A stretch of 64,000 nucleotides of DNA from the IMG/VR virus record IMGVR_UViG_3300036886_000043, positions 33,231-97,230 of that record. One strand, written 5' to 3'. The stretch comes from a virus. Made by a program: the position numbers and the translations under genes. The notes under the pieces were generated by a model. It was not told the origin of the DNA, did no database searches, and saw only the letters and a program-made list of their open reading frames with translations. This document shows positions 8,018 through 19,419 of the stretch, piece by piece. Position 1 is the stretch's first letter. Each line of letters begins with the position of its first letter.

Positions 8018-11000
8018 ATGCCGGACGCTGTTTACAAAGAGTACCCTCTCATCTTCCAAAGCAAGGGAATCTTCGCCCGCCAGGTCGATGACCTTGTGGA
8101 CCCGCAAGGGCTTTTGAATGAGGATAATGTTGAGGAGTTGGCAGAAGGCGCTTATGCTCAAAAATTGGGCAGTGTCCTCGTAAACGCCCAGGGGACCATC
8201 GGCCAGCCGGTCTACCCGTTATCGGGGAAAGTGGTCAGCCTATCCAAATTAGGCCAGTTGGCGGGGGCATACGCAAGATATGCGGTTACGGCAGACGGGG
8301 CTCTCTGGCGCAGATCGTTGCTTTCGGCGGGGCAGTTCACAAAGATTTCTACATCCTTCAGCGGGAGCCCTTGCTCGATTCAGTCTTACTGCAACACGGA
8401 TTTTACCTCAGTATCGACGGAATTTTTTGCAGACGCCGCAGGGATGTTCAAGGACGACGGAACCTTTGCGGCTCCACAGCAGATGGGCATCTTCCAGCCC
8501 CAGTTTCCAGTGCAGGCGCAGGCGCAGCCGCCCTCATCCGTGATACTTGACAACTATGTGACCTCGGCGGGGAGCTATTCATACACCGGGATCTCTGGAG
8601 GAACCAACGCAGGATACGTGAATACGACGATCCCTGCTGGAGTTCCCGCCGCAGGGCTTCAATCGGTAACGGTGGTCGATCCTACGCAGCCGGGCCTATT
8701 CCAGCTTTTGACTGTTGACTCAGGCGGAAATGCGGAGACGGTCCTTGTCCTCTTAGTGACTCCCACGGGGTTTGTGGCGAACTTCACAAAGATTCACTCA
8801 AGTGGAGTCACGGTCACGAGCGCAGACCTCTCGGTTTCGGTTCCTGCAAGCACTACGGCAACAATAAGTGCCTCATTCGGCATCCTTCCATGTGGGGCTA
8901 AACCGATACTTGTGAACTGGCCCGTTACAAACCAGCCACTACAGCAAGCGGACTACCTTGGCTTGTATCTTTTTGTCAGTGATCCAACCCAGATACAGAG
9001 CATCACGCTCAAGCTCGATTGCGGGGATGGTTCATTCGATAGTGATTATTTCTACAAGGTCATTGCTCAAGGTCCACTCCAAAATTTGGTATCTTCGGCA
9101 ACCTCTTCAACAGACCCAACAACTGCATTGACGGACGCGCTCCTGTCAGACAGCCTCAATCTCTACGGCAACCAAGCCGGAGGGATCGGTGAACTGAATA
9201 CCGGGCTCGACAACTGGACACCGCTCCTCTTTCAACTCTCCGACTTTGCCGGCTCAGGCCGTGCGGACTTCAACGATCCGGTCTACAACTGGGCCAACGT
9301 CAACGGCTACCAGATTCAGATTGTCACCAACGACAACACGAGCGTGACGGTCAATCTTGCGGCCCTGGTGCTCTTTGGCGGAGCCGGTCCAGATACGCTC
9401 GGAGGCGTAGCTTACGACTACGTGTGGACGTTTTTCAATCCGGTGGATGGAACAGAGTCAAACCCGTCAATGATTGTGACGAACCAGAACCCGCCGAATC
9501 AGACGAACCGGGTCTATCCGCGGCGCCAGCCGGTGTTGTTGAACATGGACGTTACCACTTACGGACCATTAGGGCAGTTGCAAGACGGTCAGATCGGGTA
9601 TCTGAGAATCTACAGGCGAGGTGGAACACTCGGGGACAACTTCCGAAGGGTAGATCAAATTCCGGTCAACATAGCGGCCGGGGGAATCGTCCAGTACATC
9701 GACACAGCGCCGGACTACCTAGTAGCCGGAGCAGATATTGTCTCGTTTACCAACGATGTTCCGGTCCCGAGCCTACTCCCGGTCCCGGTCAACACGACAT
9801 TGATGACTCCGATCTATACAGAAAATCAGGTGACGAACGTCTTCCCTGTGTCGATGGCAAACATCTCTGTGCGCCAGCAGGTAACAATCGGAAGTCCTAC
9901 TGCAATAGCAAACAACTTTGAAACCGTAATTGTTCTAACCCTCGACGAAGCAAGTTTTACTGCGTTTGTGCAAAACGCTCATGCGGCTGGAGAGCCGGTA
10001 CAGGCAAGCTATCAGGTAGGCCAGCCGGTTTATGGAATGGTCATAGCCTTCAACAAGGCATGGTATTGGGGAGATCCGAATAACCCGTCTACCCTCTACT
10101 TCAGCACCGGAAATGCTCCGCAGTACGTGGGAGAGGCGAACAACGTCATTGTCTCCACCCCGGACGACTACATCACAACAGTTAAGCCTTACAAGGGAAA
10201 CATCTTCGTCAGTTGCGTCAAAAGCGGGTGGTGGATGATTCCTCCGGGCTCTCCTGCCAGCCAGCCGCCGTATCCTACGGCCTGCGTACATGGCTGCGTG
10301 GCTCCGTTCGGGGCCGTGGCGACAGAGGAAATGATTCTCTATCAGGCGGCGGACGGAATACGCGCTTTCGCTGGAGGGGCATCGGAGTATATGAGTCTCC
10401 CGATTGAATTCATTTTTCAAGGCGTGGGTTCTACTCCGATTGTCGAAGCGGATCAAACGAAGTTGTCTCAGACGGTGGCCGCGTATTGGAACTCGATGGT
10501 ATTTTTCAGCTACATCGGGACGGATGGGAACCGGCATCGAGTGATTGCCCACGCTCAATACAAGAGGTTCAGGAATGACGACGTGGACGCTCAATGCCTC
10601 TTGCTTGAGGCCGACACGAATCAGTTGCTCTATGGAGACTCAAACGGACTGGTTCACATCGACCGTCAGAACCTTCCCTATGACCAGGTAAACAGCGGCG
10701 GTGTGCTGGCCGCGGGACCGATTGCGATCAATTTGCAAACAGCCTATAGCTTCCAAGGAAGCCCCGCGAACCAGAAACAGTATCAGGCCGTTCAGATCGA
10801 CTGCAACACAGGGGGCCAAACGCTCAACGTCAACCTTCTCTTCAATGATGGAGAGATCACAGTCGCGCTCGGAACGATCAGCAATGCACAGCGCGGCAAG
10901 ATCAATCTGCCAGTGAACTTAGGGTTGGGCCAACAGGCGTATAAGATTTCGCTTCAGATCACCGGCAACGTGTCTGCCTTCGCGTACCTCTATCAAGCCG

Positions 11001-11359
11001 CAGTTGAGGCTCTGGTGCTGCCGAGGACGCGGAAAACCGTAGATACCTACGACCTGAATTGCGGATTTGCAGACTCGAAATACTGCAAGGATTTTTGGGC
11101 ACAGTACACGGCTACGGCTCCGATCAACGTGCAAGTGTATTATGACGACAACGCAACCCCAGGGTTCACTTTCACGATGCCTCAAGCCGGAGGCGTCAGG
11201 AACCCTCTTAGGGTAAGATTACCGGCAGTCTCATTCAGGACGATCCGCGTGGTAGCGGAATCGACAGGGGACTTTCTCTGGTGGCCCGATACCTGTCTTT
11301 GGGTCAAGCCCCAGTGCGCTTCGAGGGGCTATGAGAAGGTGTTGATTGTTGAGAACTAA
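8018..11359 (+). CDS. large virion protein, probably tail nozzle / packaged-DNA stabilisation type
   Basis: 1113 aa, beta-rich, propeller-like motifs (PSTLYFS, GCVAPFG, LLYGDSNG); lies upstream of GNAT and ejection genes as in podoviruses. Confidence 0.6.
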   Translation: MPDAVYKEYPLIFQSKGIFARQVDDLVDPQGLLNEDNVEELAEGAYAQKLGSVLVNAQGTIGQPVYPLSGKVVSLSKLGQLAGAYARYAVTADGALWRRSLLSAGQFTKISTSFSGSPCSIQSYCNTDFTSVSTEFFADAAGMFKDDGTFAAPQQMGIFQPQFPVQAQAQPPSSVILDNYVTSAGSYSYTGISGGTNAGYVNTTIPAGVPAAGLQSVTVVDPTQPGLFQLLTVDSGGNAETVLVLLVTPTGFVANFTKIHSSGVTVTSADLSVSVPASTTATISASFGILPCGAKPILVNWPVTNQPLQQADYLGLYLFVSDPTQIQSITLKLDCGDGSFDSDYFYKVIAQGPLQNLVSSATSSTDPTTALTDALLSDSLNLYGNQAGGIGELNTGLDNWTPLLFQLSDFAGSGRADFNDPVYNWANVNGYQIQIVTNDNTSVTVNLAALVLFGGAGPDTLGGVAYDYVWTFFNPVDGTESNPSMIVTNQNPPNQTNRVYPRRQPVLLNMDVTTYGPLGQLQDGQIGYLRIYRRGGTLGDNFRRVDQIPVNIAAGGIVQYIDTAPDYLVAGADIVSFTNDVPVPSLLPVPVNTTLMTPIYTENQVTNVFPVSMANISVRQQVTIGSPTAIANNFETVIVLTLDEASFTAFVQNAHAAGEPVQASYQVGQPVYGMVIAFNKAWYWGDPNNPSTLYFSTGNAPQYVGEANNVIVSTPDDYITTVKPYKGNIFVSCVKSGWWMIPPGSPASQPPYPTACVHGCVAPFGAVATEEMILYQAADGIRAFAGGASEYMSLPIEFIFQGVGSTPIVEADQTKLSQTVAAYWNSMVFFSYIGTDGNRHRVIAHAQYKRFRNDDVDAQCLLLEADTNQLLYGDSNGLVHIDRQNLPYDQVNSGGVLAAGPIAINLQTAYSFQGSPANQKQYQAVQIDCNTGGQTLNVNLLFNDGEITVALGTISNAQRGKINLPVNLGLGQQAYKISLQITGNVSAFAYLYQAAVEALVLPRTRKTVDTYDLNCGFADSKYCKDFWAQYTATAPINVQVYYDDNATPGFTFTMPQAGGVRNPLRVRLPAVSFRTIRVVAESTGDFLWWPDTCLWVKPQCASRGYEKVLIVEN

Positions 11360-11385: not shown

Positions 11386-11553
11386 ATGCTCAACATCATT
11401 TTGGTAATTCTGATGTTTCTGTGCGGATTTGGCGGATATGCGATCCCAGTTACGCAGCCGGCCGGTTTCCGGTATGGCGTCGGTCTTCTCGGCGCTGTGC
11501 TTTTTATCTTGTTTTGCCTCATCAACCTTGGCCTGATTCACCCAGGGCTATAA
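11386..11553 (+). CDS. small two-helix membrane protein
   Basis: MLNIILVILMFLCGFGG...LLGAVLFILFCLINLGLIHPGL; GAGGTG RBS. Confidence 0.7.
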   Translation: MLNIILVILMFLCGFGGYAIPVTQPAGFRYGVGLLGAVLFILFCLINLGLIHPGL

Positions 11554-11556
11554 GCG

Positions 11557-11721
11557 ATGATTATCTTGCTCATCATTGTTCTAGTTCTGCTCTTTGGCGG
11601 CGGCTTCGGTTACTACGGCCACACTCAATGGGGCGCGAATAACGTCTATGCAGGGCCGGGAATCGGCCTTGGAACCATCCTGATTATCCTGCTGATTCTG
11701 TTCCTGCTCGGCGTCATTTGA
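11557..11721 (+). CDS. DUF3309-like small membrane protein
   Basis: MIILLIIVLVLLFGGGFGYYGHTQWG...GIGLGTILIILLILFLLGVI. Confidence 0.75.
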   Translation: MIILLIIVLVLLFGGGFGYYGHTQWGANNVYAGPGIGLGTILIILLILFLLGVI

Positions 11722-11816
11722 GTCGTGTCCGCATGTGCATGTAGGACAGTGTTTAGTCGTTCCCGCTCTGTGGAAATCTCTCCGGTTGTCGAGAAGGGGT
11801 TACTATTCAGGTAGCC

Positions 11817-11845
11817 TTGACGCAAATCATTTTCCGTGCGATGAT
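11817..11845 (+). promoter_or_regulatory. promoter P1 of tRNA block 1
   Basis: TTGACG-17 nt-(TG)GATGAT, 6 nt before the leader ATG (leaderless). Confidence 0.7.
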
Positions 11846-11851
11846 TTTGAT

Positions 11852-11923
11852 ATGAGATTTGACCGCAACAGTTTATGCCTCTCCTATTCACTCCTGTCGA
11901 GTGACGGGGAGGCTGCGGTCTGA
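11852..11923 (+). CDS. attenuator leader peptide 1 MRFDRNSLCLSYSLLSSDGEAAV
   Basis: 11 consecutive S/L/C/Y codons matching the downstream tRNAs; lies between promoter and terminator. Confidence 0.85.
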   Translation: MRFDRNSLCLSYSLLSSDGEAAV

Positions 11924-11950
11924 TTCCAAAGTTTGGAATTTCAGCGAAGC

Positions 11951-11974
11951 GGCCTCCAGAAATGGAGGCTTTTT
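11951..11974 (+). terminator. attenuator 1 intrinsic terminator
   Basis: GGCCTCCA-GAAA-TGGAGGC-TTTTT. Confidence 0.9.
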
Positions 11975-11979
11975 GTTGT

Positions 11980-12063
11980 GCGGGATTGGCGAAACGGCAG
12001 CCGCGCCCGATTTAAGATCGGGTGTCTTAGGACGTGGGAGTTCAAGTCTCCCATCCCGCACCA
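11980..12063 (+). tRNA. trnL: tRNA-Leu(TAA)
   Basis: GCGGGAT/ATCCCGC; CCCGA-TTTAAGA-TCGGG; long variable arm; CCA. Confidence 0.95.
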
Positions 12064-12064
12064 T

Positions 12065-12141
12065 GTATCGGAAGGTAAAGTTTTGGAACCAGTGGTCCGC
12101 AAAACCACTTTTAGCCGGTGGGACTCCGGCCCGGTACTCCA
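12065..12141 (+). tRNA. trnC: tRNA-Cys(GCA), atypical
   Basis: GTATCGG/CCGGTAC, U73, GTGGT-CCGCAAA-ACCAC; T-loop TGGGACT; C33. Confidence 0.8.
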
Positions 12142-12153
12142 AAGTTTAGTAGT

Positions 12154-12232
12154 GCTCGCGTAGCCCAATTTGGCAGGAGGCACTTCATTCAAAACGAAGA
12201 CAGTGCTGGTTCAAATCCAGCCGCGAGTACCA
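12154..12232 (+). tRNA. trnL: tRNA-Leu(CAA), short variable loop
   Basis: GCTCGCG/CGCGAGT; loop TTCAAAA; variable region ACAGT. Confidence 0.9.
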
Positions 12233-12240
12233 AAATATGT

Positions 12241-12319
12241 GCCCCGTTAGCCCAATTGGCAGGAGGCGTCTGACTTAGGATCAGAACAGTGATGAGTTCG
12301 AATCTCTCACGGGGTACCA
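12241..12319 (+). tRNA. trnL: tRNA-Leu(TAG), short variable loop
   Basis: GCCCCGT/ACGGGGT; TCTGA-CTTAGGA-TCAGA; variable region ACAGT. Confidence 0.92.
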
Positions 12320-12328
12320 AAATTTAGA

Positions 12329-12357
12329 TTGCAACGGGTACCAATCTACTGTAAAAT
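12329..12357 (+). promoter_or_regulatory. promoter of the inserted endonuclease gene
   Basis: TTGCAA-17 nt-TAAAAT, 6 nt before ATG 12364. Confidence 0.75.
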
Positions 12358-12363
12358 ATTGGT

Positions 12364-12963
12364 ATGAATGGTGATTCGAGTATTTGCAATGGATGTGGTT
12401 TAAGTGAGCCAGAAGTGAGATTTCGATTGCGGAAGGCGAACGGGAAAACTTACAGAAAACACTTGTGTACAAAATGTGATGATGAATATCAAAAGAAGTA
12501 CACTAAACCTCAAGGCGTAAAAGATAGGAATAGAAAATCGTATCTGAAAAGAAAGGAGAGAAGAGCACGGGGAGAAATAGTCGAGATTTTCCTTCTTGAG
12601 GACTGTCGAAGAATTGACAGAAAAAAAGGTATCAAATCCGATTTAGACTCTGAATATATTGCGGAGATAATAAAGGATGGATGCGCGTATTGCGGAGATA
12701 TAGAATCACGCATTGGGCTTGATCGGATAGATAATTCACTGGGCCACATGAAGGGAAATGTTAACGCCTGTTGTATGAGATGTAATCTTATTCGTAGGGA
12801 TATGCCATACGAAGCATGGCTGATTGTAGCGCCCACGATGAAGATTGCGAGAGAATCAAAAGCGTTTGGGAATTGGAATGTGCTTTTTGGAAACAAGAAG
12901 AAAACGGAGCGCGGGCCGGACGATAAGGCAACGGGTTGCTACCCCGCACAGCCGCAAGGCTGA
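12364..12963 (+). CDS. HNH/His-Me-type homing endonuclease
   Basis: CxxC pairs; CAYCG...GLDRIDNSLGHMKGNVNACCMRCN; AT-rich insertion between tRNA genes. Confidence 0.85.
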   Translation: MNGDSSICNGCGLSEPEVRFRLRKANGKTYRKHLCTKCDDEYQKKYTKPQGVKDRNRKSYLKRKERRARGEIVEIFLLEDCRRIDRKKGIKSDLDSEYIAEIIKDGCAYCGDIESRIGLDRIDNSLGHMKGNVNACCMRCNLIRRDMPYEAWLIVAPTMKIARESKAFGNWNVLFGNKKKTERGPDDKATGCYPAQPQG

Positions 12964-12991
12964 CTGAGTTTGACTCTCAGGCGCTCCGCCA
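12906..12991 (+). tRNA. trnS: tRNA-Ser(GCT)
   Basis: GGAGCGC/GCGCTCC, G73, loop TTGCTAC, variable arm CAGCC-GCAA-GGCTG. Confidence 0.88.
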
Positions 12992-12995
12992 GTTC

Positions 12996-13080
12996 GGAAG
13001 GTACCGCTGAAAGGTCGGCAAACGGTCCTGAAAACCGTGGCTCCTTCGGGATGGGCGTTCGATTCGTCTACCTTCCGCCA
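12996..13080 (+). tRNA. trnS: tRNA-Ser(TGA)
   Basis: GGAAGGT(A)/(T)ACCTTCC; ACGGT-CCTGAAA-ACCGT; variable arm; C33. Confidence 0.9.
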
Positions 13081-13085
13081 AGTTT

Positions 13086-13172
13086 GGGAGTGATGCTCTG
13101 TAGGGAGAGCAGCAGGCCGTAACCCTGCCGTCACTTGTGGCATAGGGGGTTCGATTCCCTCCACTCCCACCA
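13086..13172 (+). tRNA. trnY: tRNA-Tyr(GTA)
   Basis: GGGAGTG/CACTCCC; GCAGG-CCGTAAC-CCTGC; variable arm; C33. Confidence 0.9.
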
Positions 13173-13175
13173 TAC

Positions 13176-13204
13176 TTGTCAACACGGAAGAGTAGTGGTA
13201 TACT
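13176..13204 (+). promoter_or_regulatory. internal promoter without leader peptide, upstream of the initiator tRNA
   Basis: TTGTCA-17 nt-(TG)TATACT. Confidence 0.8.
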
Positions 13205-13209
13205 GAAAT

Positions 13210-13284
13210 CGCGGGTTGGTAGCGCAGCGTCATACGTCAGGCTCATACCCTGAAGATCCGGTGCAAATCCGGTACCCGCAACCA
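13210..13284 (+). tRNA. trnfM: tRNA-fMet(CAT), initiator type
   Basis: C1.A72 mismatch (CGCGGGT/ACCCGCA); TCAGG-CTCATAC-CCTGA. Confidence 0.85.
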
Positions 13285-13285
13285 A

Positions 13286-13361
13286 GGTCACGTCGTCTAA
13301 CTGGAAGGATACTTCCCTGTCTAGGAAGCTGGCGCGGGTTCGATTCCCGTCGTGATCGCCA
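13286..13361 (+). tRNA. trnD: tRNA-Asp(GTC)
   Basis: GGTCACG/CGTGATC, G73; CTTCC-CTGTCTA-GGAAG. Confidence 0.93.
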
Positions 13362-13367
13362 AGTTTA

Positions 13368-13446
13368 GCCGATGCACTCTGTACTGGATTCGGAGCACTC
13401 CCCTTCAAGGAGTTGGATGCGAGTTCGATTCTCGTCGTCGGCGCCA
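13368..13446 (+). tRNA. trnE: tRNA-Glu(TTC)
   Basis: GCCGATG/CGTCGGC; ACTCC-CCTTCAA-GGAGT; C33. Confidence 0.88.
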
Positions 13447-13454
13447 AGTTTTAC

Positions 13455-13531
13455 GGGGTCACCGTCTAATTGGTCTGGACGCCAGATTCTCAATCTGGAA
13501 ACTGTGAGTTCGATCCTCACTGGCCCTACCA
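13455..13531 (+). tRNA. trnE: tRNA-Glu(CTC)
   Basis: GGGGTCA/TGGCCCT; CCAGA-TTCTCAA-TCTGG. Confidence 0.93.
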
Positions 13532-13540
13532 GAAAATGAT

Positions 13541-13569
13541 TTGACAGAAATTGCGAACGGCGGTACAGT
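13541..13569 (+). promoter_or_regulatory. promoter P2 of tRNA block 2
   Basis: TTGACA-17 nt-TACAGT. Confidence 0.85.
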
Positions 13570-13579
13570 AGAAAACGAG

Positions 13580-13648
13580 ATGAAAAACCGAGTCAATCAC
13601 GGATTTACACCAGCGACGGCGCAACCGACGCAGGGTAATCCTATGTAG
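13580..13648 (+). CDS. attenuator leader peptide 2 MKNRVNHGFTPATAQPTQGNPM
   Basis: contains a cognate codon for all 12 block-2 tRNAs; lies between promoter and terminator. Confidence 0.88.
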   Translation: MKNRVNHGFTPATAQPTQGNPM

Positions 13649-13674
13649 CGGCTCGTGGAGTTTGAAGCAAAGCG

Positions 13675-13705
13675 CCCACCGAGCCAATCAGCCGGTGGGT
13701 TTTTT
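13675..13705 (+). terminator. attenuator 2 intrinsic terminator
   Basis: CCCACCG...CGGTGGG-TTTTTT. Confidence 0.88.
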
Positions 13706-13713
13706 GTTGATGT

Positions 13714-13789
13714 TCCAGCGTAGCAAAAAGGTAATGCGCCGCACTGTTAATGCGGAAATGTGCAGGTTCGAGTCCTGCCGCTGGAGCCA
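13714..13789 (+). tRNA. trnN: tRNA-Asn(GTT)
   Basis: TCCAGCG/CGCTGGA; CCGCA-CTGTTAA-TGCGG. Confidence 0.95.
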
Positions 13790-13798
13790 GTTTGAAGT

Positions 13799-13873
13799 TG
13801 CCCGTTCGTTCATGTGGCAGGACGGCTGACTCTGGATCAGCGGAGCGAGGTTCAAGTCCTCGACGGGCAGCCA
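13799..13873 (+). tRNA. trnQ: tRNA-Gln(CTG)
   Basis: TGCCCGT/ACGGGCA; GCTGA-CTCTGGA-TCAGC. Confidence 0.95.
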
Positions 13874-13881
13874 AGTTTTAC

Positions 13882-13957
13882 AGGGAGATGGCCGAGCGGC
13901 TTAGGCGACAGCCTTTGGAACTGTCTCAGGTAGGTTCGACTCCTACTCTCCCTGCCA
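13882..13957 (+). tRNA. trnQ: tRNA-Gln(TTG)
   Basis: AGGGAGA/TCTCCCT; loop CTTTGGA. Confidence 0.93.
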
Positions 13958-13958
13958 T

Positions 13959-14034
13959 GCGGACGTAGCTCAATTGGTAGAGCACAGCGTTGCCAATGCT
14001 GAGGTTGCCGGATCGTTGCCGGTCGTTCGCTCCA
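13959..14034 (+). tRNA. trnG: tRNA-Gly(GCC)
   Basis: GCGGACG/CGTTCGC, U73; loop TTGCCAA; T-loop ATCGTTG. Confidence 0.93.
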
Positions 14035-14119
14035 AATTTTGGAGGTTGACATGCCGCACAGGTATCATTTCAATGCCGATCTCCGAGAAGTGTACAGAAG
14101 GCTGGCGGGACAATTTCGA

Positions 14120-14194
14120 GCACCGTTAGTTGAGTCGGCACAACACGACACTCGTAACGTCGAGGCTCCGGTTCGAGGCCGGGACGGTGCTCCA
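14120..14194 (+). tRNA. trnT: tRNA-Thr(CGT)
   Basis: GCACCGT/ACGGTGC; loop CTCGTAA. Confidence 0.9.
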
Positions 14195-14208
14195 GAATTG
14201 GAAGGTGA

Positions 14209-14748
14209 GTGATGAATTTGATGCGGAAGCCGGTATTGCAGTTGAATGCAAGCTACGAGCCGCTTCGCATCATCGCGGCAAGAAGGGCATTGACGCTCAT
14301 AACCAAGGGCGTAGCCGTGGTGGAAGTGCCAACCAGCACAGTAGTCTATCCTGGCATCTACTTGCCCTCAGTGATTCGGTTGCGGACTTACCGGCATGTG
14401 CCTATTAGGATGCAGGTGATGAGCCGCAAGAACATTCTCCTTCGGGATGGCGGCCGCTGCATGTATTGCGGACAGAGGTCAAACGAATTGACGCTTGACC
14501 ATGTGATTCCGCGTTCCCGTGGCGGATTGAATACGTGGGACAATCTTGTGGCTTGCTGCAAACGCGACAATCACAAGAAGAACGACAGGACTCCAGAGGA
14601 AGCGGGAATGAACTTGATTCACAGGCCGCTTCCGCAAACGATCCACACGCCGCGGTTTGTTCTACGGTCTATGGGTTTGGAAGTAAATGAGTGGAGCCCG
14701 TACTTGTGGGCCGACTCCGAAGGCGACAAGAAGTATGCGTTTAACTGA
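14209..14748 (+). CDS. HNH endonuclease (McrA/HNH_5-like)
   Basis: VLQLNASYEPL...LPSVIRL...RDGGRCMYCG...TLDHVIPRSRGG...WDNLVACCKRDNHKK. Confidence 0.93.
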   Translation: MMNLMRKPVLQLNASYEPLRIIAARRALTLITKGVAVVEVPTSTVVYPGIYLPSVIRLRTYRHVPIRMQVMSRKNILLRDGGRCMYCGQRSNELTLDHVIPRSRGGLNTWDNLVACCKRDNHKKNDRTPEEAGMNLIHRPLPQTIHTPRFVLRSMGLEVNEWSPYLWADSEGDKKYAFN

Positions 14749-14820
14749 GCCGGGTGAACATCGAATGTTGCGGGCGCTTGTATCGCTTGCTAGTGGGTTC
14801 GACTCCCACATCCGGCCCCA
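14749..14820 (+). tRNA. trnT: tRNA-Thr(TGT), compact fold
   Basis: GCCGGGT/ATCCGGC; D arm AACA-TCGAA-TGTT; 6-7-bp anticodon stem, loop CTTGTAT. Confidence 0.82.
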
Positions 14821-14830
14821 ACAAGTTCAT

Positions 14831-14905
14831 GGGGAATATCGTTCAGCGATAGGACGCTAAGTTGTGGCCTTAGTCACCGCAGTTTGATTCTGCGTATTCC
14901 CCCCA
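14831..14905 (+). tRNA. trnH: tRNA-His(GTG)
   Basis: G-1:C73; CTAAG-TTGTGGC-CTTAG. Confidence 0.92.
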
Positions 14906-14918
14906 AGTTTTAAGTAGT

Positions 14919-14993
14919 GGGCGTGTGGTGCTAATGGGAACACATCCGGCCTGCACCCGGAAGTTGAGAGTTCGATTCTCTCCATGTCCACCA
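14919..14993 (+). tRNA. trnA: tRNA-Ala(TGC)
   Basis: G3:U70; TCCGG-CCTGCAC-CCGGA; C33. Confidence 0.93.
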
Positions 14994-14999
14994 AGTTTT

Positions 15000-15075
15000 G
15001 CCGACTTAGCTGATGAGGTCATAGCGGTCGCCTGAAGAGCGATAGAAGCCCGCTCGATACGGGCAGTCGGCACCA
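15000..15075 (+). tRNA. trnF: tRNA-Phe(GAA)
   Basis: GCCGACT/AGTCGGC; loop CTGAAGA. Confidence 0.92.
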
Positions 15076-15076
15076 T

Positions 15077-15154
15077 CGGTGTGTAGCGTAGTCTGCTTAA
15101 CGCGCTCCGTTCGGGACGGAGAGATCGCAGGTCGAAATCCTGCCACGCCGACCA
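15077..15154 (+). tRNA. trnP: tRNA-Pro(CGG)
   Basis: CGGTGTG/CACGCCG; CTCCG-TTCGGGA-CGGAG. Confidence 0.93.
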
Positions 15155-15160
15155 GTTTAC

Positions 15161-15234
15161 CGGGGTGTAGTGTAAAGGAAACATCCGTGGCCTGGGACCA
15201 CGTGTTGGGCTTTCGAGATGCCCCACCCCGACCA
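15161..15234 (+). tRNA. trnP: tRNA-Pro(TGG)
   Basis: CGGGGTG/CACCCCG; CGTGG-CCTGGGA-CCACG; C33. Confidence 0.88.
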
Positions 15235-15240
15235 ATTTAC

Positions 15241-15315
15241 GGCCCGTTCGTTCAATGGACAGGACTTCGGATTACGAATCCGACAATCAGAGTTCGACTC
15301 TCTGGCGGGCTACCA
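15241..15315 (+). tRNA. trnR: tRNA-Arg(ACG)
   Basis: GGCCCGT/GCGGGCT; TCGGA-TTACGAA-TCCGA; A20. Confidence 0.95.
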
Positions 15316-15316
15316 C

Positions 15317-15345
15317 TTGCAAGAAAAGAAAAGTTGATGTACAGT
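15317..15345 (+). promoter_or_regulatory. promoter P3 of tRNA block 3
   Basis: TTGCAA-17 nt-TACAGT, 7 nt before the leader ATG. Confidence 0.82.
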
Positions 15346-15352
15346 GGAATTC

Positions 15353-15421
15353 ATGCAGATCAGGACCAAACACGGAATAACCAGAATGACCAAGCGGGTC
15401 ATTTGGGGGATCGTGTGTTGA
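15353..15421 (+). CDS. attenuator leader peptide 3 MQIRTKHGITRMTKRVIWGIVC
   Basis: contains a cognate codon for all 12 block-3 tRNAs; lies between promoter and terminator. Confidence 0.9.
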   Translation: MQIRTKHGITRMTKRVIWGIVC

Positions 15422-15447
15422 GGGTCTGAGCATTTTGGTACGCACAG

Positions 15448-15472
15448 ACCTTCGCTCAGGCGAGGGTTTTTT
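15448..15472 (+). terminator. attenuator 3 intrinsic terminator
   Basis: ACCTTCGC-TCAG-GCGAGGG-TTTTTT. Confidence 0.9.
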
Positions 15473-15488
15473 ATTGCTCTTTGAAAAT

Positions 15489-15563
15489 AGGGGAGTGCTG
15501 GCGGCACAGCGGTTGGTCTCCAAAACCAACGTCACGGCGGTTCGAGTCCGCTCTCCCCTGCCA
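15489..15563 (+). tRNA. trnW: tRNA-Trp(CCA), compact fold
   Basis: AGGGGAG/CTCCCCT, G73; GTTGGT-CTCCAAA-ACCAAC. Confidence 0.9.
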
Positions 15564-15568
15564 TTTTT

Positions 15569-15637
15569 GGCACGTACCCAAGGCGGGAAGCGATCCTCAT
15601 AAGATCGTAAACTGGTTCGAGTCCAGGCGTGCTACCA
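15569..15637 (+). tRNA. trnM: tRNA with CAT anticodon (probably elongator Met), 69 nt
   Basis: GGCACGT/GCGTGCT; GCGATC-CTCATAA-GATCGT; minimal D arm. Confidence 0.8.
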
Positions 15638-15642
15638 GTTTT

Positions 15643-15736
15643 GGGCGATAGCACCGGCCGTGCGGCGGAGTCTTATAAACTCTGGAGAGCGCCAGATTAG
15701 CGCAACGGGAAGGATCGACACCTTCATCGCCTACCA
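15643..15736 (+). tRNA. trnI: tRNA-Ile(TAT) with long variable arm
   Basis: GGGCGAT/ATCGCCT; CGGAGT-CTTATAA-ACTCTG; GCGC-CAGATTA-GCGC arm. Confidence 0.8.
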
Positions 15737-15739
15737 TGT

Positions 15740-15814
15740 GGGTCGCAGATGTTTTTGGCGGCATACCCGGCTCTTACCCGGAATGGCGGGGTTCGACTCC
15801 CCGGCGACCCACCA
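15740..15814 (+). tRNA. trnK: tRNA-Lys(CTT)
   Basis: GGGTCGC/GCGACCC; CCGG-CTCTTAC-CCGG. Confidence 0.9.
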
Positions 15815-15823
15815 TCTGTTTTC

Positions 15824-15897
15824 GGACTGCGAGTGTGATGGTGCATAACGCCCTTTTAAGGCGTTTGGATAGAGTTCGATTCTCTAGCGGTCCACCA
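15824..15897 (+). tRNA. trnK: tRNA-Lys(TTT)
   Basis: GGACTGC/GCGGTCC; ACGCC-CTTTTAA-GGCGT. Confidence 0.9.
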
Positions 15898-15898
15898 T

Positions 15899-15973
15899 GG
15901 CCCTATAGCTCAAGGGGATAGAGTGCGGTCTTCTAAGCCGTCGATCACCGTTCGACTCGGTGTAGGGCTCCCA
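15899..15973 (+). tRNA. trnR: tRNA-Arg(TCT)
   Basis: GGCCCTA/TAGGGCT; loop CTTCTAA; A20. Confidence 0.92.
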
Positions 15974-15978
15974 GTTTT

Positions 15979-16055
15979 GCCGCTGTATCTCTCCGGTTTC
16001 CTAAACCGGCAAGAGTAGTTGGATGACGCCGGTTCGACTCCGGCCAGCGGCCCCA
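15979..16055 (+). tRNA. trnR: tRNA-Arg(CCT) with no 5' D arm (rearranged core)
   Basis: GCCGCTG/CAGCGGC; CCGGT-TTCCTAA-ACCGG; perfect T arm; CCA. Confidence 0.8.
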
Positions 16056-16060
16056 GGTTT

Positions 16061-16138
16061 GCTGCCGTATTCGGTTCTGGTTCCGAACCAGAGGGCCGTA
16101 GATGGAGAAGGCAGGTTCGAGTCCTGTCGGCAGCGCCA
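16061..16138 (+). tRNA. trnR: tRNA-Arg(CCG) with no 5' D arm (rearranged core)
   Basis: GCTGCCG/CGGCAGC; TCTGG-TTCCGAA-CCAGA; canonical T arm; CCA. Confidence 0.8.
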
Positions 16139-16143
16139 GTTTA

Positions 16144-16219
16144 GCCGGGTTCGCCCAAAGGCTTAGGGCCGATGGTCTACACCCATCTGATAGGGGTTCG
16201 AGTCCTCTACCCGGCACCA
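16144..16219 (+). tRNA. trnV: tRNA-Val(TAC)
   Basis: GCCGGGT/ACCCGGC; GATGG-TCTACAC-CCATC; C33. Confidence 0.92.
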
Positions 16220-16224
16220 AGATT

Positions 16225-16298
16225 GTCGATGTAGCTCAGTGGTAGAGCACCGCAATGGTAATGCGGCGACGAGGGTCCGATTCCCTCCTTCGGCTCCA
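16225..16298 (+). tRNA. trnT: tRNA-Thr(GGT)
   Basis: TAGCTCAGTGGTAGAGC D arm; CCGCA-ATGGTAA-TGCGG. Confidence 0.92.
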
Positions 16299-16302
16299 TT
16301 TT

Positions 16303-16377
16303 GCCGATGTAGCTCAATGGCAGAGCATTCGCTTGATAAGCGAAAGGTCAGTGGATCAGTACCACTCATCGGCACCA
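16303..16377 (+). tRNA. trnI: tRNA-Ile(GAT)
   Basis: GCCGATG/CATCGGC; TTCGC-TTGATAA-GCGAA. Confidence 0.93.
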
Positions 16378-16383
16378 AGTTGA

Positions 16384-16458
16384 GCGGGATTAGCCAAGTG
16401 GAAAGGCAATGGGCTTCCAACCCATTATGCGTCGGTTCAACCCCGACATCCCGCTCCA
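16384..16458 (+). tRNA. trnG: tRNA-Gly(TCC)
   Basis: GCGGGAT/ATCCCGC, U73; ATGGG-CTTCCAA-CCCAT. Confidence 0.94.
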
Positions 16459-16489
16459 CTTTTCTGCCAACAAGCGTTATACTACTTTC

Positions 16490-17425
16490 ATGCCGAAGTC
16501 GCCCAAACTCGGAAAGATTACATTCTCCTCTTTGTCTCTTCCAGAGCAAATCCAGATGAGCAACTTGCAGGATGCCGTGAACATCCTCGGCGGTCATTCG
16601 GGGGAAGTCGAGTTAAGCAATCATCTAAACCTCGGCGGGAACAAAATAACGAACGTGGCGGCGCCGGCCGCGGATAGCGATGTGTTGACGAGCGGAGCGG
16701 CAGAAACAAAGTATTCCGCGGCGGCTTTACGTCCGCAGCTTGAGTCGAGCGGGACGCATCCATTCGTAGGCTACAGACAAGTCAATAATCAAGGACAGCG
16801 CGAAAAAACCTCAAGCTGGCTCAACGAGCTTCTCTCTACCCCTCCGAACTCCAACAACATCAATCCCATCGTCAGTTCTTCGGGAGGCTCAACGAGCGTC
16901 ACGATCCCGGCCAGCATCTTGCAGATGGGGGATGGAACCACGCGATACCTTCCTTCGCGGACGGACACGTTGACCAACCCGGCAAGCTACTCCATTACCT
17001 CGTTTACGATTGCTTTGGGAGTGGCAACGGTGGTTTTGTCCTCGACTCCATCGCCGGCTTTGGCTGCGCCTACGGTGGTGTACATTTCAGGGACGAGTGA
17101 GATTGACGGGACGTTCCCGATTGCAAGCATTGTCAGCCCGACGACGTTCACGATCAACGTAAGCAGTGGGGTGTCTGGCACTGGAGGGACGGTAGAGACG
17201 GGAGGAATCTGCTACTATTACCTCAACAAGTCATTCCAGAAGGTGATGCTATCCGTCCTTCCGTCATCTTCAGACACCCCGTTTAGGCGTCTCGGAATTT
17301 CTGGAGACGGATACCAGTTGCTTGCGGTTGTCAGCATCAATTCGAGCGGAACTGTCCAAGTGGGGACGGCCGGAGGGGGAACGCCGAGCGTCGTTAGCAC
17401 AGCCAATGCAGGAAGCAGGTTCTAA
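16490..17425 (+). CDS. probable virion/tail-associated protein
   Basis: LNLGGNKITNVAAP fibre-like motif, S/T/G-rich; true start probably ATG 16490, 6 nt after TATACT. Confidence 0.6.
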   Translation: MPKSPKLGKITFSSLSLPEQIQMSNLQDAVNILGGHSGEVELSNHLNLGGNKITNVAAPAADSDVLTSGAAETKYSAAALRPQLESSGTHPFVGYRQVNNQGQREKTSSWLNELLSTPPNSNNINPIVSSSGGSTSVTIPASILQMGDGTTRYLPSRTDTLTNPASYSITSFTIALGVATVVLSSTPSPALAAPTVVYISGTSEIDGTFPIASIVSPTTFTINVSSGVSGTGGTVETGGICYYYLNKSFQKVMLSVLPSSSDTPFRRLGISGDGYQLLAVVSINSSGTVQVGTAGGGTPSVVSTANAGSRF

Positions 17426-17630
17426 TGGGAATTCGAATTACAAAAGAACAAGAAGTCCATGATGGAGAAAAGCTATGGCGCATCAAAGCAACATGGGACT
17501 CTAAGCATGGAGGAACTGAATCTCATGTACGTTTTGCCAAAACTCTAGTTGCGCAGCGAAGGATAGTCTACGGATTTAAGATGAAGTTCCGTATGGGGGA
17601 GTACGACTGATCCAAAAATCAGGAGGAAAT

Positions 17631-18275
17631 ATGGAAACGAAAATTCTCGAAGCGGTTGAAACGAGTAAGATGTCAGTTTGTTCACCAGTCAAAGTATGGA
17701 AGTTCCCAGAACCGGGAAAGAACTACATCTTGTCGGCAGACCCCTGCTTGGGGACTGAAACAGATAGCTCCAATGCCGCAATCGAAGTAATTGATGCGGA
17801 GACTGGGGAACAGTGTGCAGAGTTTGCTCAGGTGGTGTCTCCTGAAAACCTAGCACCGATAATCTTCGATTTGGCGAAGAGATACAATAATGCGGAAGTG
17901 GCGGTAGAGGTAAACAGTGTCGGCATGTTGACGAACAAACTCCTGATTCACAAGTTTAATTACGAAAACATCTACCGCTTCAAACGGCTTGATCGCCTTC
18001 AAAATACCATGACGGACATCGTTGGATGGTGGACCGATTACAAGTCTAAGGCGCAAATGGAAGCCATATTCAGGGATTTTTTGGGGAATAATATAGGATT
18101 GATCCACAGTAAAAAATTGCTAAATGAGATTCTTTTCTACAACGAAGATAGTCCTAAACCGAATGATCGGTTTGCAGCCATGATGATTGCTCTGGCCGTT
18201 CGGGACGAGTTACTGAAGTCTAGGGCTTCTATTCTGAAGGCAGAAGAGAAGATGAGGAATAGGGGAGTGGATTGA
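17631..18275 (+). CDS. stand-alone terminase large-subunit nuclease-like domain
   Basis: YILSADPCLG, GEQCAEF, LAKRYNNAEVAVEVN, GWWT, NDRFAAMMIAL; no ATPase domain. Confidence 0.75.
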   Translation: METKILEAVETSKMSVCSPVKVWKFPEPGKNYILSADPCLGTETDSSNAAIEVIDAETGEQCAEFAQVVSPENLAPIIFDLAKRYNNAEVAVEVNSVGMLTNKLLIHKFNYENIYRFKRLDRLQNTMTDIVGWWTDYKSKAQMEAIFRDFLGNNIGLIHSKKLLNEILFYNEDSPKPNDRFAAMMIALAVRDELLKSRASILKAEEKMRNRGVD

Positions 18276-18476
18276 CGAACTGGAAGCGATCTGCCGAGCA
18301 GATGGATTGGAGCTTCCGACAATGTACGTGGCGTGGAATCCACGTTGCCCAGTCCACGGCTTTCCTGAAGGTTCCGAGGAATATCAGAACGCTGCAATCT
18401 TGTCTGAAACTAAGGTAATGGAGACGAAGTGGTATCAGCGTTGGCGTGACCTGATGGCAAAGGAAATGGAAGCCCA

Positions 18477-18731
18477 ATGAAAATCATCGTCAAAGACGTG
18501 AAGGTTCATCCGGTAACCGGCTACATGGAAGTGGACGTGGTGGCCGTGAACGATAAGGGCGTGGAGGGTCCGAAGAAGACGTATGGAACGGACGCTCATC
18601 AACTTCAATCGGCATACAGTGGGGACATTAACTTGTGGCTGGCATCGGTGAAGGGGACTCACGAACAGCACCATGGGCACCACGAGGTTTTGGCCGCGCA
18701 GTTGTTGGGGATGAAAGGGAAGGAACTATGA
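18477..18731 (+). CDS. hypothetical protein
   Basis: 84-aa ORF in the + strand gene run. Confidence 0.55.
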   Translation: MKIIVKDVKVHPVTGYMEVDVVAVNDKGVEGPKKTYGTDAHQLQSAYSGDINLWLASVKGTHEQHHGHHEVLAAQLLGMKGKEL

Positions 18732-18948
18732 AGAAGTTTAGAGGCAAGCCGAATCCAACACGAACAAATAGGGCATTTGAGGCTTTAGCTAAAAACTTCT
18801 ACACGGACACTCCAATGTGGAGGTTTGTTGCGAGGGGTGGTAGGGGGCGTAGGTTGATGATCTTGTATCGGCGGCTGAAGGGGAGTCGGAGGCCGCAGTG
18901 CTTTCGGCAGGATGTTTGGTGATTCCAAAATTTGGAATGGAGGGTGAT

Positions 18949-19419
18949 ATGGGATTGATTTTCAAAGACGAAGTAACGTCATCGGAGCCGCTGGATATGC
19001 CTCCTGTCAATCGACGGATTGCAAAGAACTCCGTTACAGGCGAGGACTACATCCCTGGATATGTGATTGGCCGCGGCGTAAATGTTGGCACAGAAACCTG
19101 TATTTACAGTCTTGAACAAGTGGACGGTCAGCCGCCAATGACCGCGGCGCAGAAAGCATTCGGAGTTCTTTGGTATGGGGATCTAAAACCAGACCTCATA
19201 CTTTCTTCTGAGGTATACATGAAGAAGATGGTCCGCCGCATAATTCCGAATCAGCGCAAGGCGGGGATGTACGGCTGTAATTTTGGCTTCTTTCTTAACG
19301 GGGCAATATGGTCCTATAGCGAAGAGGTTGATTGCAGTGAAGGATGGGTGTTTATTTTGAACACGAAATACCCGACAGCACCGCATCTCAATGGGTGCTA
19401 TAAGGCGATGGAGGAGTGA
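18949..19419 (+). CDS. hypothetical protein
   Basis: GGAGGGTG RBS; stop overlaps the next start. Confidence 0.6.
   Translation: MGLIFKDEVTSSEPLDMPPVNRRIAKNSVTGEDYIPGYVIGRGVNVGTETCIYSLEQVDGQPPMTAAQKAFGVLWYGDLKPDLILSSEVYMKKMVRRIIPNQRKAGMYGCNFGFFLNGAIWSYSEEVDCSEGWVFILNTKYPTAPHLNGCYKAMEE

Follow-up and report, generated by a model that had tools for sequence, protein, structure and literature searches.

Putative leader-peptide attenuators with codons matching the downstream tRNA genes in the tRNA array of a peat phage

Enterobacterial leader-peptide attenuators respond either to a single amino acid, as at trp, his, leu and phe, or to several, as at thr (Thr/Ile) and at ilvGMEDA and ilvBN (Ile/Leu/Val). 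Leader-peptide attenuation also acts on pheST and other synthetase genes, for one amino acid each, and T-boxes bind uncharged transfer RNA (tRNA) directly via a specifier codon, without a ribosome. The role of phage tRNA genes has been debated for 50 years, mainly between codon compensation and counter-defence, and to our knowledge almost nothing is known about their regulation. Synthetase genes under leader-peptide attenuation include hisS paralogues (PMC2965389), and in mycobacteria leaderless poly-cysteine short open reading frames (ORFs) are Cys-responsive attenuators (bioRxiv 10.1101/834739). The trn operon of Anabaena sp. PCC 7120 is an accessory mobile tRNA array that is silent by default, induced by impaired translation, and associated and co-regulated with rtcB; control is exerted through promoter-overlapping direct repeats and a repressor that is presumed, neither a leader ORF nor a terminator is present, and the signal is translational stress in general (PMC8421152). 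Here we describe three candidate leader-peptide attenuators in the tRNA array of a phage. The array lies in a stretch of 64,000 nucleotides (nt), hereafter the window, from the IMG/VR virus record IMGVR_UViG_3300036886_000043 (positions 33,231 to 97,230). The window is the 3' two-thirds of this 97,230-base record, which bears direct terminal repeats and represents a complete 97-kb peat phage; DNA of the phage was detected in many peat and permafrost metagenomes, and none of the runs listed for it is of RNA.

The array (11980-16458, + strand) comprises 35 tRNA genes in three blocks, with all 20 amino acids represented. ARAGORN with default settings called 28 tRNAs between 11980 and 16458, every one on the + strand, and relaxed settings added Ser-GCT, Ser-TGA and Met-CAT. 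Cys-GCA, Thr-TGT, Arg-CCT and Arg-CCG were identified by eye and with a simple cloverleaf scan, and homologous genes called by ARAGORN in relatives agree with them. The gaps between the blocks measure 182 and 173 bases, and a third region of this kind lies 5' of the array. All three regions contain the same cassette, in the order -35 and -10 hexamers with a 17-nt spacer, ATG, ORF of 22-23 sense codons, and GC-rich hairpin with T tract. An earlier note on this DNA, made from the sequence alone, had described 35 tRNA genes in three blocks, each behind a common promoter, ORF and terminator; the gene count was borne out by the 28, three and four tRNAs given above, and the coordinates of all three cassettes were verified. 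Cassettes and blocks are arranged as follows.

11817-11845, + strand: promoter 1 (-35 at 11817, -10 at 11840; TTGACG, 17 nt, GATGAT, with TG upstream of the -10; promoter scan)
11852-11923, + strand: leader ORF 1 (23 sense codons and stop, leaderless; Ser/Leu/Cys/Tyr run at codons 6-16)
11877-11884 and 11906-11916, + strand: regions 1 and 2 of attenuator 1 (minimum-energy fold)
11949-11979, + strand: region 3 and terminator 1 (stem 11951-11970, T tract to 11979)
11980-13172, + strand: tRNA block 1a (Leu-TAA, Cys-GCA, Leu-CAA, Leu-TAG, HNH ORF, Ser-GCT, Ser-TGA, Tyr-GTA)
13176-13204, + strand: internal promoter (TTGTCA, 17 nt, TATACT; 5 nt 5' of tRNA-Met; no leader ORF and no terminator)
13210-13531, + strand: tRNA block 1b (Met-CAT, Asp-GTC, Glu-TTC, Glu-CTC)
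13541-13569, + strand: promoter 2 (-35 at 13541, -10 at 13564; TTGACA, 17 nt, TACAGT; promoter scan)
13580-13648, + strand: leader ORF 2 (22 sense codons and stop)
13649-13713, + strand: attenuator 2 (antiterminator 13649-13659, terminator 13675-13699, T tract from 13700)
13714-15315, + strand: tRNA block 2 (Asn, two Gln, Gly-GCC, Thr-CGT, HNH ORF, Thr-TGT, His, Ala, Phe, two Pro, Arg-ACG)
15317-15345, + strand: promoter 3 (-35 at 15317, -10 at 15340; TTGCAA, 17 nt, TACAGT; read from the sequence)
15353-15421, + strand: leader ORF 3 (22 sense codons and stop, leaderless)
15419-15477, + strand: attenuator 3 (antiterminator 15419-15428, including the stop codon, region 3 15445-15454, terminator 15449-15466, T tract from 15467)
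15489-16458, + strand: tRNA block 3 (Trp, Met-CAT, Ile-TAT, two Lys, Arg-TCT, Arg-CCT, Arg-CCG, Val, Thr-GGT, Ile-GAT, Gly-TCC)

The distance from the -10 to the ATG is only 6, 10 and 7 nt in cassettes 1, 2 and 3, respectively, and the leader transcripts are therefore predicted to be leaderless or nearly so. Promoter 3 scored 8/12, under the threshold of the scan tool. The terminator hairpins are GC-rich (-12 to -17 kcal/mol) and followed by a T tract, with 10, 14 and 22 nt between the stem and the first tRNA in cassettes 1, 2 and 3, and 1-11 nt between the end of the T tract and the first tRNA. From the stop codon to the 5' arm of the terminator there are 27-30 nt. In attenuator 1, region 2 (the antiterminator strand) pairs with region 1 or alternatively with 11949-11957.

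The codons of each leader were compared with the anticodons of each block under standard wobble (G34 reads C/U, C34 reads G, U34 reads A/G and A34, as inosine, reads U/C/A). Leader 2 covered 12 of the 12 tRNAs of its own block, with 16 of 21 codons cognate, leader 3 likewise 12 of 12 (17 of 21 codons), and leader 1 covered 9 of 11 (11 of 22 codons). With the other two blocks each leader shared just 1-4 cognate codons. Against 200,000 random codon strings drawn from the codon usage of the long ORFs of the genome (Monte-Carlo), leader 1 reached a joint P of 0.0035, and leaders 2 and 3 each one of <5e-6. When 599 ATG ORFs of 15-30 codons from the whole 97-kb genome were compared with the three blocks, leader 3 ranked first and leader 2 second by both measures. 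The match extended to isoacceptors: Thr is encoded by ACA/ACG in leader 2 and by ACC in leader 3, and Arg by CGA in leader 2 and by AGG/AGA/CGG in leader 3. For Thr, Arg and Gly, the amino acids that have isoacceptors in block 2 as well as in block 3, 13 of 14 codons fit the own block, compared with 7.0 expected from synonymous usage (P~0.001). The complete coverage by leaders 2 and 3 and the Thr and Arg split, both claimed in the earlier note, were thus recovered, and the randomisation of leader codons against block anticodons that it had proposed showed the match to be non-random.

One alternative is that the ORFs are untranslated, that the promoters together with leaky terminators or structured 5' leaders set a fixed low tRNA level, and that the codon match arose by chance. 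The terminators are indeed strong, as this alternative would allow. However, the match to the own block was confined to the ORF frame, with 1-8 cognate codons in the other two frames and in the reverse complement, and in 20,000 base or within-codon-position shuffles, which preserve composition, the match of leaders 2 and 3 was never attained (P<5e-5) and that of leader 1 was attained in 0.3-0.7%. The position of two leaders at the top of the 599 short ORFs likewise argues against chance, and we regard this alternative as very improbable.

All in silico tests that were run favour attenuators with sensor codons matching the downstream tRNAs. It is likely, as judged from this modelling, that the three cassettes are ribosome-mediated (leader-peptide) transcription attenuators gating the tRNA blocks, so that the phage probably makes a tRNA set only when ribosomes decode the matching codons slowly. 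From the anatomy, codon statistics, conservation and covariation of the cassettes we infer leader translation, stalling, readthrough and feedback in the following way. RNA polymerase would start at the sigma70-type promoter and a ribosome would load on the 5'-terminal or near-terminal AUG. A ribosome that reaches the stop codon would mask the antiterminator strand, the terminator would form and transcription would end a few bases before the first tRNA. If no ribosome is loaded, region 1 would pair with region 2 and the terminator would form as well. A ribosome stalled in the sensing window would cover region 1 and leave region 2 free to pair with the 5' arm of the terminator, allowing readthrough into the tRNAs, and the released tRNAs would relieve the stall, providing negative feedback. 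Because the sensing window is built from codons of the own block at the isoacceptor level, each leader would act as an OR-gate on the decoding rate of a tRNA set. Candidates for the cause of slow decoding are a mismatch between host supply and phage demand, late decay of the host pool, and cleavage by tRNA-targeting defence.

In the predicted leader folds a long hairpin encloses most of the ORF (regions 1:2) and is followed by the terminator (3:4); the z scores of the leader RNA folds against shuffles were -7.4, -2.9 and -4.0 for leaders 1, 2 and 3, respectively. For a model of the switch, the ribosomal A site was placed at each codon, the 11 nt downstream were taken as covered and only the RNA 3' of the ribosome was folded, at equilibrium. 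For leader 3 the modelled probability of the terminator was 0.99 both without a ribosome and with one anywhere from codon 20 to the stop, but 0.00-0.14 with one at codons 1-18. For leader 1 the values were 0.99 without a ribosome, 0.70-0.91 at codons 6-9, 0.02-0.04 at codons 10-14 and 0.90-0.99 from codon 15 to the stop, and this modelled window falls within the Ser/Leu/Cys/Tyr run. For leader 2 they were 0.97 without a ribosome, 0.16-0.90 at codons 1-19 and 0.99 at codons 20-22. The model thus predicts a trp-type switch by ribosome position, with clean behaviour in leaders 1 and 3 and weak behaviour in leader 2. Since the Asp/Glu codons of leader 1 lie outside its modelled window and a plain promoter precedes Met-Asp-Glu-Glu, leader 1 would in practice gate Leu, Cys, Ser and Tyr. 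Among the relatives described below, the model gave leader 1 a clear window in L005, L015 and L032 and only a partial switch in L001, whereas leader 3 switched clearly in L015 and partially in L005 and L032. For leader 1 of L032 the terminator probability fell from 0.96 without a ribosome to 0.00-0.38 with one at codons 2-13, and it was 0.86 or higher from codon 14 onward.

The model also bears on the inverted logic, in which translation of the leader is required for readthrough, because it opens the terminator or blocks Rho, and healthy translation gives positive feedback. In bacteria, continued transcription is commonly coupled to translation, and under such self-activation a codon match would be equally expected. 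In every leader, however, the modelled terminator probability was 0.99 with a ribosome at the last codons, and a ribosome at the end of the leader masks the antiterminator strand, not the terminator. As the stop codons lie 27-30 nt upstream, a terminating ribosome could not reach the 5' arm of the terminator. The inverted logic is therefore highly unlikely.

Like the enterobacterial attenuators, the cassettes have a short ORF close to the promoter and regions 1-4 with alternative antiterminator and terminator hairpins; the position of the ribosome would be the signal that is read, and one leader samples several codon families. The ORF has a usable start codon near the transcription start, and translation is predicted; the leader is enriched in the sensed codons; an intrinsic terminator lies between the leader ORF and the regulated genes; and antiterminator and terminator exclude each other in the equilibrium model, only partially so in leader 2. 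Unlike the enterobacterial systems, the cassettes precede tRNA genes and not genes of biosynthetic enzymes, they sample up to 12 tRNAs with 1-3 codons each at isoacceptor resolution and have no tandem runs for 1-3 amino acids, their transcripts are leaderless or nearly so, and the product is proposed to feed back directly on the sensor. In the classical family (trpL, hisL, thrL, ilvL, pheM) a biosynthetic enzyme or synthetase is encoded downstream; here the downstream genes are tRNAs and two HNH ORFs, so the cassettes would work like classical attenuators without being members of the family. Attenuators of the pheST type likewise act on a component of the translation apparatus and sense the supply of charged tRNA, whereas the phage cassettes would control the tRNAs themselves, in sets of 11-12.

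As in T-box riboswitches, tRNA status would be sensed and an intrinsic terminator lies upstream of translation-related genes, but the sensor codons of the phage lie within an ORF and would be read by the ribosome. A Stem I with specifier loop and a T-box sequence in the antiterminator were not found: cmscan of 11500-16800 against Rfam 15 (E<=1) returned no T-box or other leader family, only tRNA-clan and chance-level matches, and the same held for L015. The leaderless poly-cysteine ORFs of mycobacteria resemble the cassettes as 5' short ORFs whose codon content sets downstream expression (as proposed here for the phage); they differ in sensing one amino acid, in acting on protein-coding operons and in belonging to a cellular genome. 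The nearest functional parallel is the Anabaena trn operon, likewise an accessory tRNA array with a response to impaired translation (proposed for the phage), but the response of the phage array is proposed to be codon-resolved, via leader ORF and terminator. Repeats of the Anabaena type were not noticed in the three promoters by eye; no formal search was made. Full-text literature searches, with most subscription journals outside their coverage, found no description of leader-peptide attenuation of tRNA genes, and the author of the earlier note had likewise known of none. As far as found, the mechanism is of a known kind, and its target and multiplexing are new. E. coli pheV was considered as a precedent for an attenuator-like leader and dropped; in K-12, pheV has a plain promoter directly before the tRNA.

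Two conserved protein genes flank the array, encoding 1113 residues (8018-11359) and 311 residues (16490-17425). About 120 homologues of the 1113-residue protein were found. Scans with this protein led to three full arrays (in contigs L005, L015 and L032) and a fragment of the array start (L001); the identity of the protein was 78% in L005, 77% in L001, 53% in L015 and 52% in L032. blastn of the array against the phage collection gave short tRNA-level matches only and no relatives, an exact-pattern scan of viral contigs for promoter 2 matched the L005 contig alone, and contigs of four peat and permafrost DNA runs yielded sequence variants only. In the relatives the tRNA order is mostly alike, the tRNA and leader sequences have diverged, and the cassettes are kept in all. 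The -35 of promoter 1, its spacing and the gap of 6-7 nt to the start codon are conserved in L005, L001, L015 and L032, promoter 2 in L005, L015 and L032, and promoter 3 in L005. Coverage of the own block by each leader was as follows.

L005: leader 1, 8 of 11; leader 2, 12 of 12; leader 3, 12 of 12 (by eye)
L015: leader 1, 12 of 13; leader 2, 11 of 11; leader 3, 9 of 10
L032: leader 1, 7 of 7; leader 2, 11 of 11; leader 3, 11 of 13

The three tRNAs missed by leader 1 of L005 are those for Asp/Glu, which are located behind an internal promoter. This promoter before Met-Asp-Glu is conserved in L005 and L001, the leader 1 of which is without Asp/Glu codons; L015 has no recognisable internal promoter, and a GAT codon lies within the modelled window of its leader 1. 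In L032, Asp-GTC, Glu-TTC and Glu-CTC are found in block 3 rather than block 1. Its leader 1 has no Asp/Glu codon, and its leader 3 is the only one among the four leaders 3 that contains such codons: codon 14 is GAA and codon 20 is GAT, and the modelled leader 3 window (codons 1-20) includes the two. That Asp/Glu codons accompany the Asp/Glu tRNAs into another block argues further against untranslated ORFs. The ORFs themselves point the same way, since they have stayed open across four diverged relatives; the differences include an indel that is in frame, changes at third positions and a Shine-Dalgarno motif that was gained. Compared with the window, leader 3 of L005 has an in-frame insertion of 3 nt (a Gly codon) and substitutions confined to block 3 amino acids, and two double compensatory changes separate the stems of the two terminators. 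The permafrost run X18 yielded a variant of leader 1 in which all four changes are at third codon positions, three of them synonymous in Leu codons and one changing Asp to Glu. In leader 3 of L005 and L015 the 5' untranslated region is longer and the leaderless start is gone, and a Shine-Dalgarno-like motif is found 5' of the ATG. Region 2 of leader 2 co-varies with the terminator arm that it mimics (L005, L015). The co-variation of leader codons with block content that the earlier note had proposed to look for was seen in this way, in few genomes, and loss of the ORFs or of the match with the hairpins kept, named there as a refuting case, was not seen in the three full arrays.

Across the relatives, leader 2 retains its amino-acid composition with altered codon order, and, as far as these sequences go, what appears to be selected is the codon content as translated, not the sequence of the peptide or of the RNA. 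This bears on a further alternative, in which the terminated RNAs of ~120 nt or the peptides of 22-23 residues are themselves functional in trans, for example as a small protein, a small RNA or a decoy that binds tRNA, with the codon composition serving that role and not a sensor in cis. In Sinorhizobium, RNAs and leader peptides derived from attenuators can act in trans (PMC6614838, PMC7298713), and in leader 3 the sequence of the 5' half is conserved, not its composition alone. This half also serves as region 1, a role that may constrain it. The reshuffled leader 2 peptide with its kept composition argues against a folded or binding peptide, and action in trans leaves unexplained both the position of each cassette before the matching block and the ribosome-position switch; we give it very little credence.

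The array itself is an accessory cassette, because relatives with 69-81% identity of the flanking proteins carry a lone tRNA-Met at the array site. In such array-less relatives the tRNA-Met stands behind a plain promoter with no leader; in L002 this promoter matches the internal one found at 13176-13204 in the window. The relative L010 shows no recognisable leader before its first tRNA, in a contig that ends too early for a judgement.

Several observations weigh against control by attenuators, or limit its reach. The internal promoter at 13176 and a promoter of an HNH gene at 12329 could feed downstream tRNAs and bypass the attenuators, so that the earlier claim of attenuator control over the array is supported, with control less complete than had been claimed. 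Leader 1 covers 9 of 11 tRNAs, has no TTG codon for Leu-CAA, and carries its Asp/Glu codons (3, 17 and 19) at places beyond the sensing window of the model; these gaps, like the internal promoter, were not mentioned in the earlier note. All leaders include some codons (4-5 in leaders 2 and 3) that are non-cognate. With just 1-3 codons per tRNA in place of a tandem run, mild shortages may fail to register. Amino-acid starvation would also stall the ribosome, though extra tRNA would then be useless. In L015 and L032 leader 3 retains ACC and ATA, yet no Thr-GGT or Ile-TAT gene was detected in that block (the Thr-GGT gene of L032 sits in block 2), and L032 has a TTA codon and no Leu-TAA tRNA. Finally, the antiterminator of leader 2 is thermodynamically weak inside the sensing window, and leader 2 of L005, L015 and L032 showed no switch at equilibrium (terminator probability 0.98-1.00), an observation that would also suit untranslated ORFs. 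The switch of leader 2 would have to be kinetic. Real attenuators operate kinetically and the model is one of equilibrium; we therefore take the weakness of leader 2 as a caveat and not as a refutation.

A special case of attenuator control is that the cassettes serve mainly in counter-defence, detecting the loss of tRNAs to anticodon nucleases or other tRNA-targeting immunity and switching on nuclease-resistant replacements. Phage tRNAs can rescue infection from tRNA-cleaving defences (PMC10264068, PMC11555353, PMC11464382), and single sensor codons would suit near-total loss of a tRNA better than a mild shortage. The array is accessory and contains homing endonuclease genes, which suggests mobility and is common at anti-defence loci (PMC13096335). 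In L005 a gene for an RtcB-type RNA ligase (18232-19415) lies between blocks 2 and 3, directly upstream of leader 3; this is the only hint of cleavage by defence nucleases as the trigger, and RtcB was not found in the genome of the phage studied here. The array, moreover, spans all 20 amino acids, beyond the usual nuclease targets, and general control of supply and demand fits equally well. We therefore consider a mainly counter-defensive role possible but rather doubtful.

In the record of the Caulobacter phage phiCbK, rho-independent terminators are annotated immediately upstream of tRNA blocks. The Phe, Val, Ile, Ile, Val, Gln and Gln tRNAs of this phage are preceded by a 32-codon ORF with a first half rich in Gln/Phe/Val/Ile, with a -35-like TTGACA hexamer upstream of the ORF and no -10 identified, and the small ORF gp083, rich in Ser/Leu/Pro/Lys/Ala/Thr, is followed by a terminator and by tRNAs for Pro, Lys, Leu, Ala and Ser. 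By its sequence phiCbK appears to carry the same design in an independent lineage, and since it is a cultured phage the design is directly testable. Tentatively, codon-matched leader attenuators may even be a general phage device that has so far gone undescribed, a multiplexed, isoacceptor-resolved sensor of the host tRNA pool with on-demand replacement, also under tRNA-targeting immunity, that evolved repeatedly in unrelated lineages such as peat phages and phiCbK-like Caulobacter phages. If the cassettes work as modelled, phages would meter tRNA output against real-time decoding speed, codon by codon, and leader-peptide attenuation would come to include tRNAs as targets, with feedback that is direct and as many as 12 inputs to one switch. 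The leaders would then record which tRNAs the phage expects to run short of and, compact as they are, could report the availability of individual tRNA isoacceptors without further design.

Further features of the array are the tRNA genes identified by eye, two HNH ORFs and a palindromic hairpin.

11924-11938, + strand: palindromic hairpin (15 nt, between leader 1 stop codon and terminator; copy of a palindrome over-represented genome-wide)
12065-12137, + strand: tRNA Cys-GCA (by eye/cloverleaf scan)
12364-12963, + strand: HNH homing-endonuclease ORF 1, within block 1a
14209-14748, + strand: HNH homing-endonuclease ORF 2, within block 2
about 14750-14830, + strand: tRNA Thr-TGT (by eye/cloverleaf scan)
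15979-16051, + strand: tRNA Arg-CCT (by eye/cloverleaf scan; structurally atypical)
16060-16135, + strand: tRNA Arg-CCG (by eye/cloverleaf scan; structurally atypical)

The genes for Arg-CCT and Arg-CCG have normal acceptor, anticodon and T arms. The gap from the acceptor to the anticodon stem is just 7-8 nt, leaving no room for a D hairpin, and a D-loop-like motif is found within a segment of 17-18 nt 3' of the anticodon arm. Both genes were missed by ARAGORN and matched Rfam weakly, via the tRNA-Sec model. The atypical architecture is kept in L015 and in L005, where Arg-TCT shows it too. The tRNA-Ile (TAT) gene at 15643-15736 measures 94 nt and has an extra arm, unusual for an Ile tRNA; the same form occurs in L005 (19758-19851), and no Ile-TAT gene with an extra arm was detected in L015 or L032. 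Most tRNAs of the array encode the CCA end, followed by a similar short trailer (13078-14998). The sequence CCAAGTTT occurs six times in the array and once elsewhere in the window, and the trailer resembles half of the genome-wide palindrome.

This palindrome, CCAAANTTTGG, was found 14 times in the window (0.11 expected), at 1892, 7301, 9079, 11926, 14032, 18925, 21223, 25357, 27407, 31747, 37913, 40977, 44710 and 47713, and 23 times in the 97-kb genome, often extended to a dyad of 15 nt. Many copies lie 8-20 nt 5' of a start codon, some lie within long ORFs, and one directly follows tRNA-Gly-GCC. Possible roles of the palindrome are as an operator for a protein, as a processing site or as a promoter element of the phage.

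A promoter-like site of its own (12329-12357) precedes HNH ORF 1, the 3' end of which overlaps tRNA-Ser-GCT (12906-12991). A 53-codon ORF (14051-14211) with a strong Shine-Dalgarno motif, GGAGG, 6 nt 5' of its ATG traverses tRNA-Thr-CGT (14120-14194); its end meets the start of HNH ORF 2 in a different frame and its 5' part is conserved in L005. It may represent the N-terminus of that endonuclease, split off or frameshifted. The insertions in the arrays of relatives differ in kind and in position. In L015 (17069-17624) a tRNA-Pro is apparently split after the anticodon arm by an insertion that brings a complete second tRNA-Pro (TGG) and an HNH-like ORF, with the T arm and 3' acceptor strand of the split gene at 17590-17624. 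Downstream of the array in the window, a single ORF of 3810 residues extends from 22685 to 34117.

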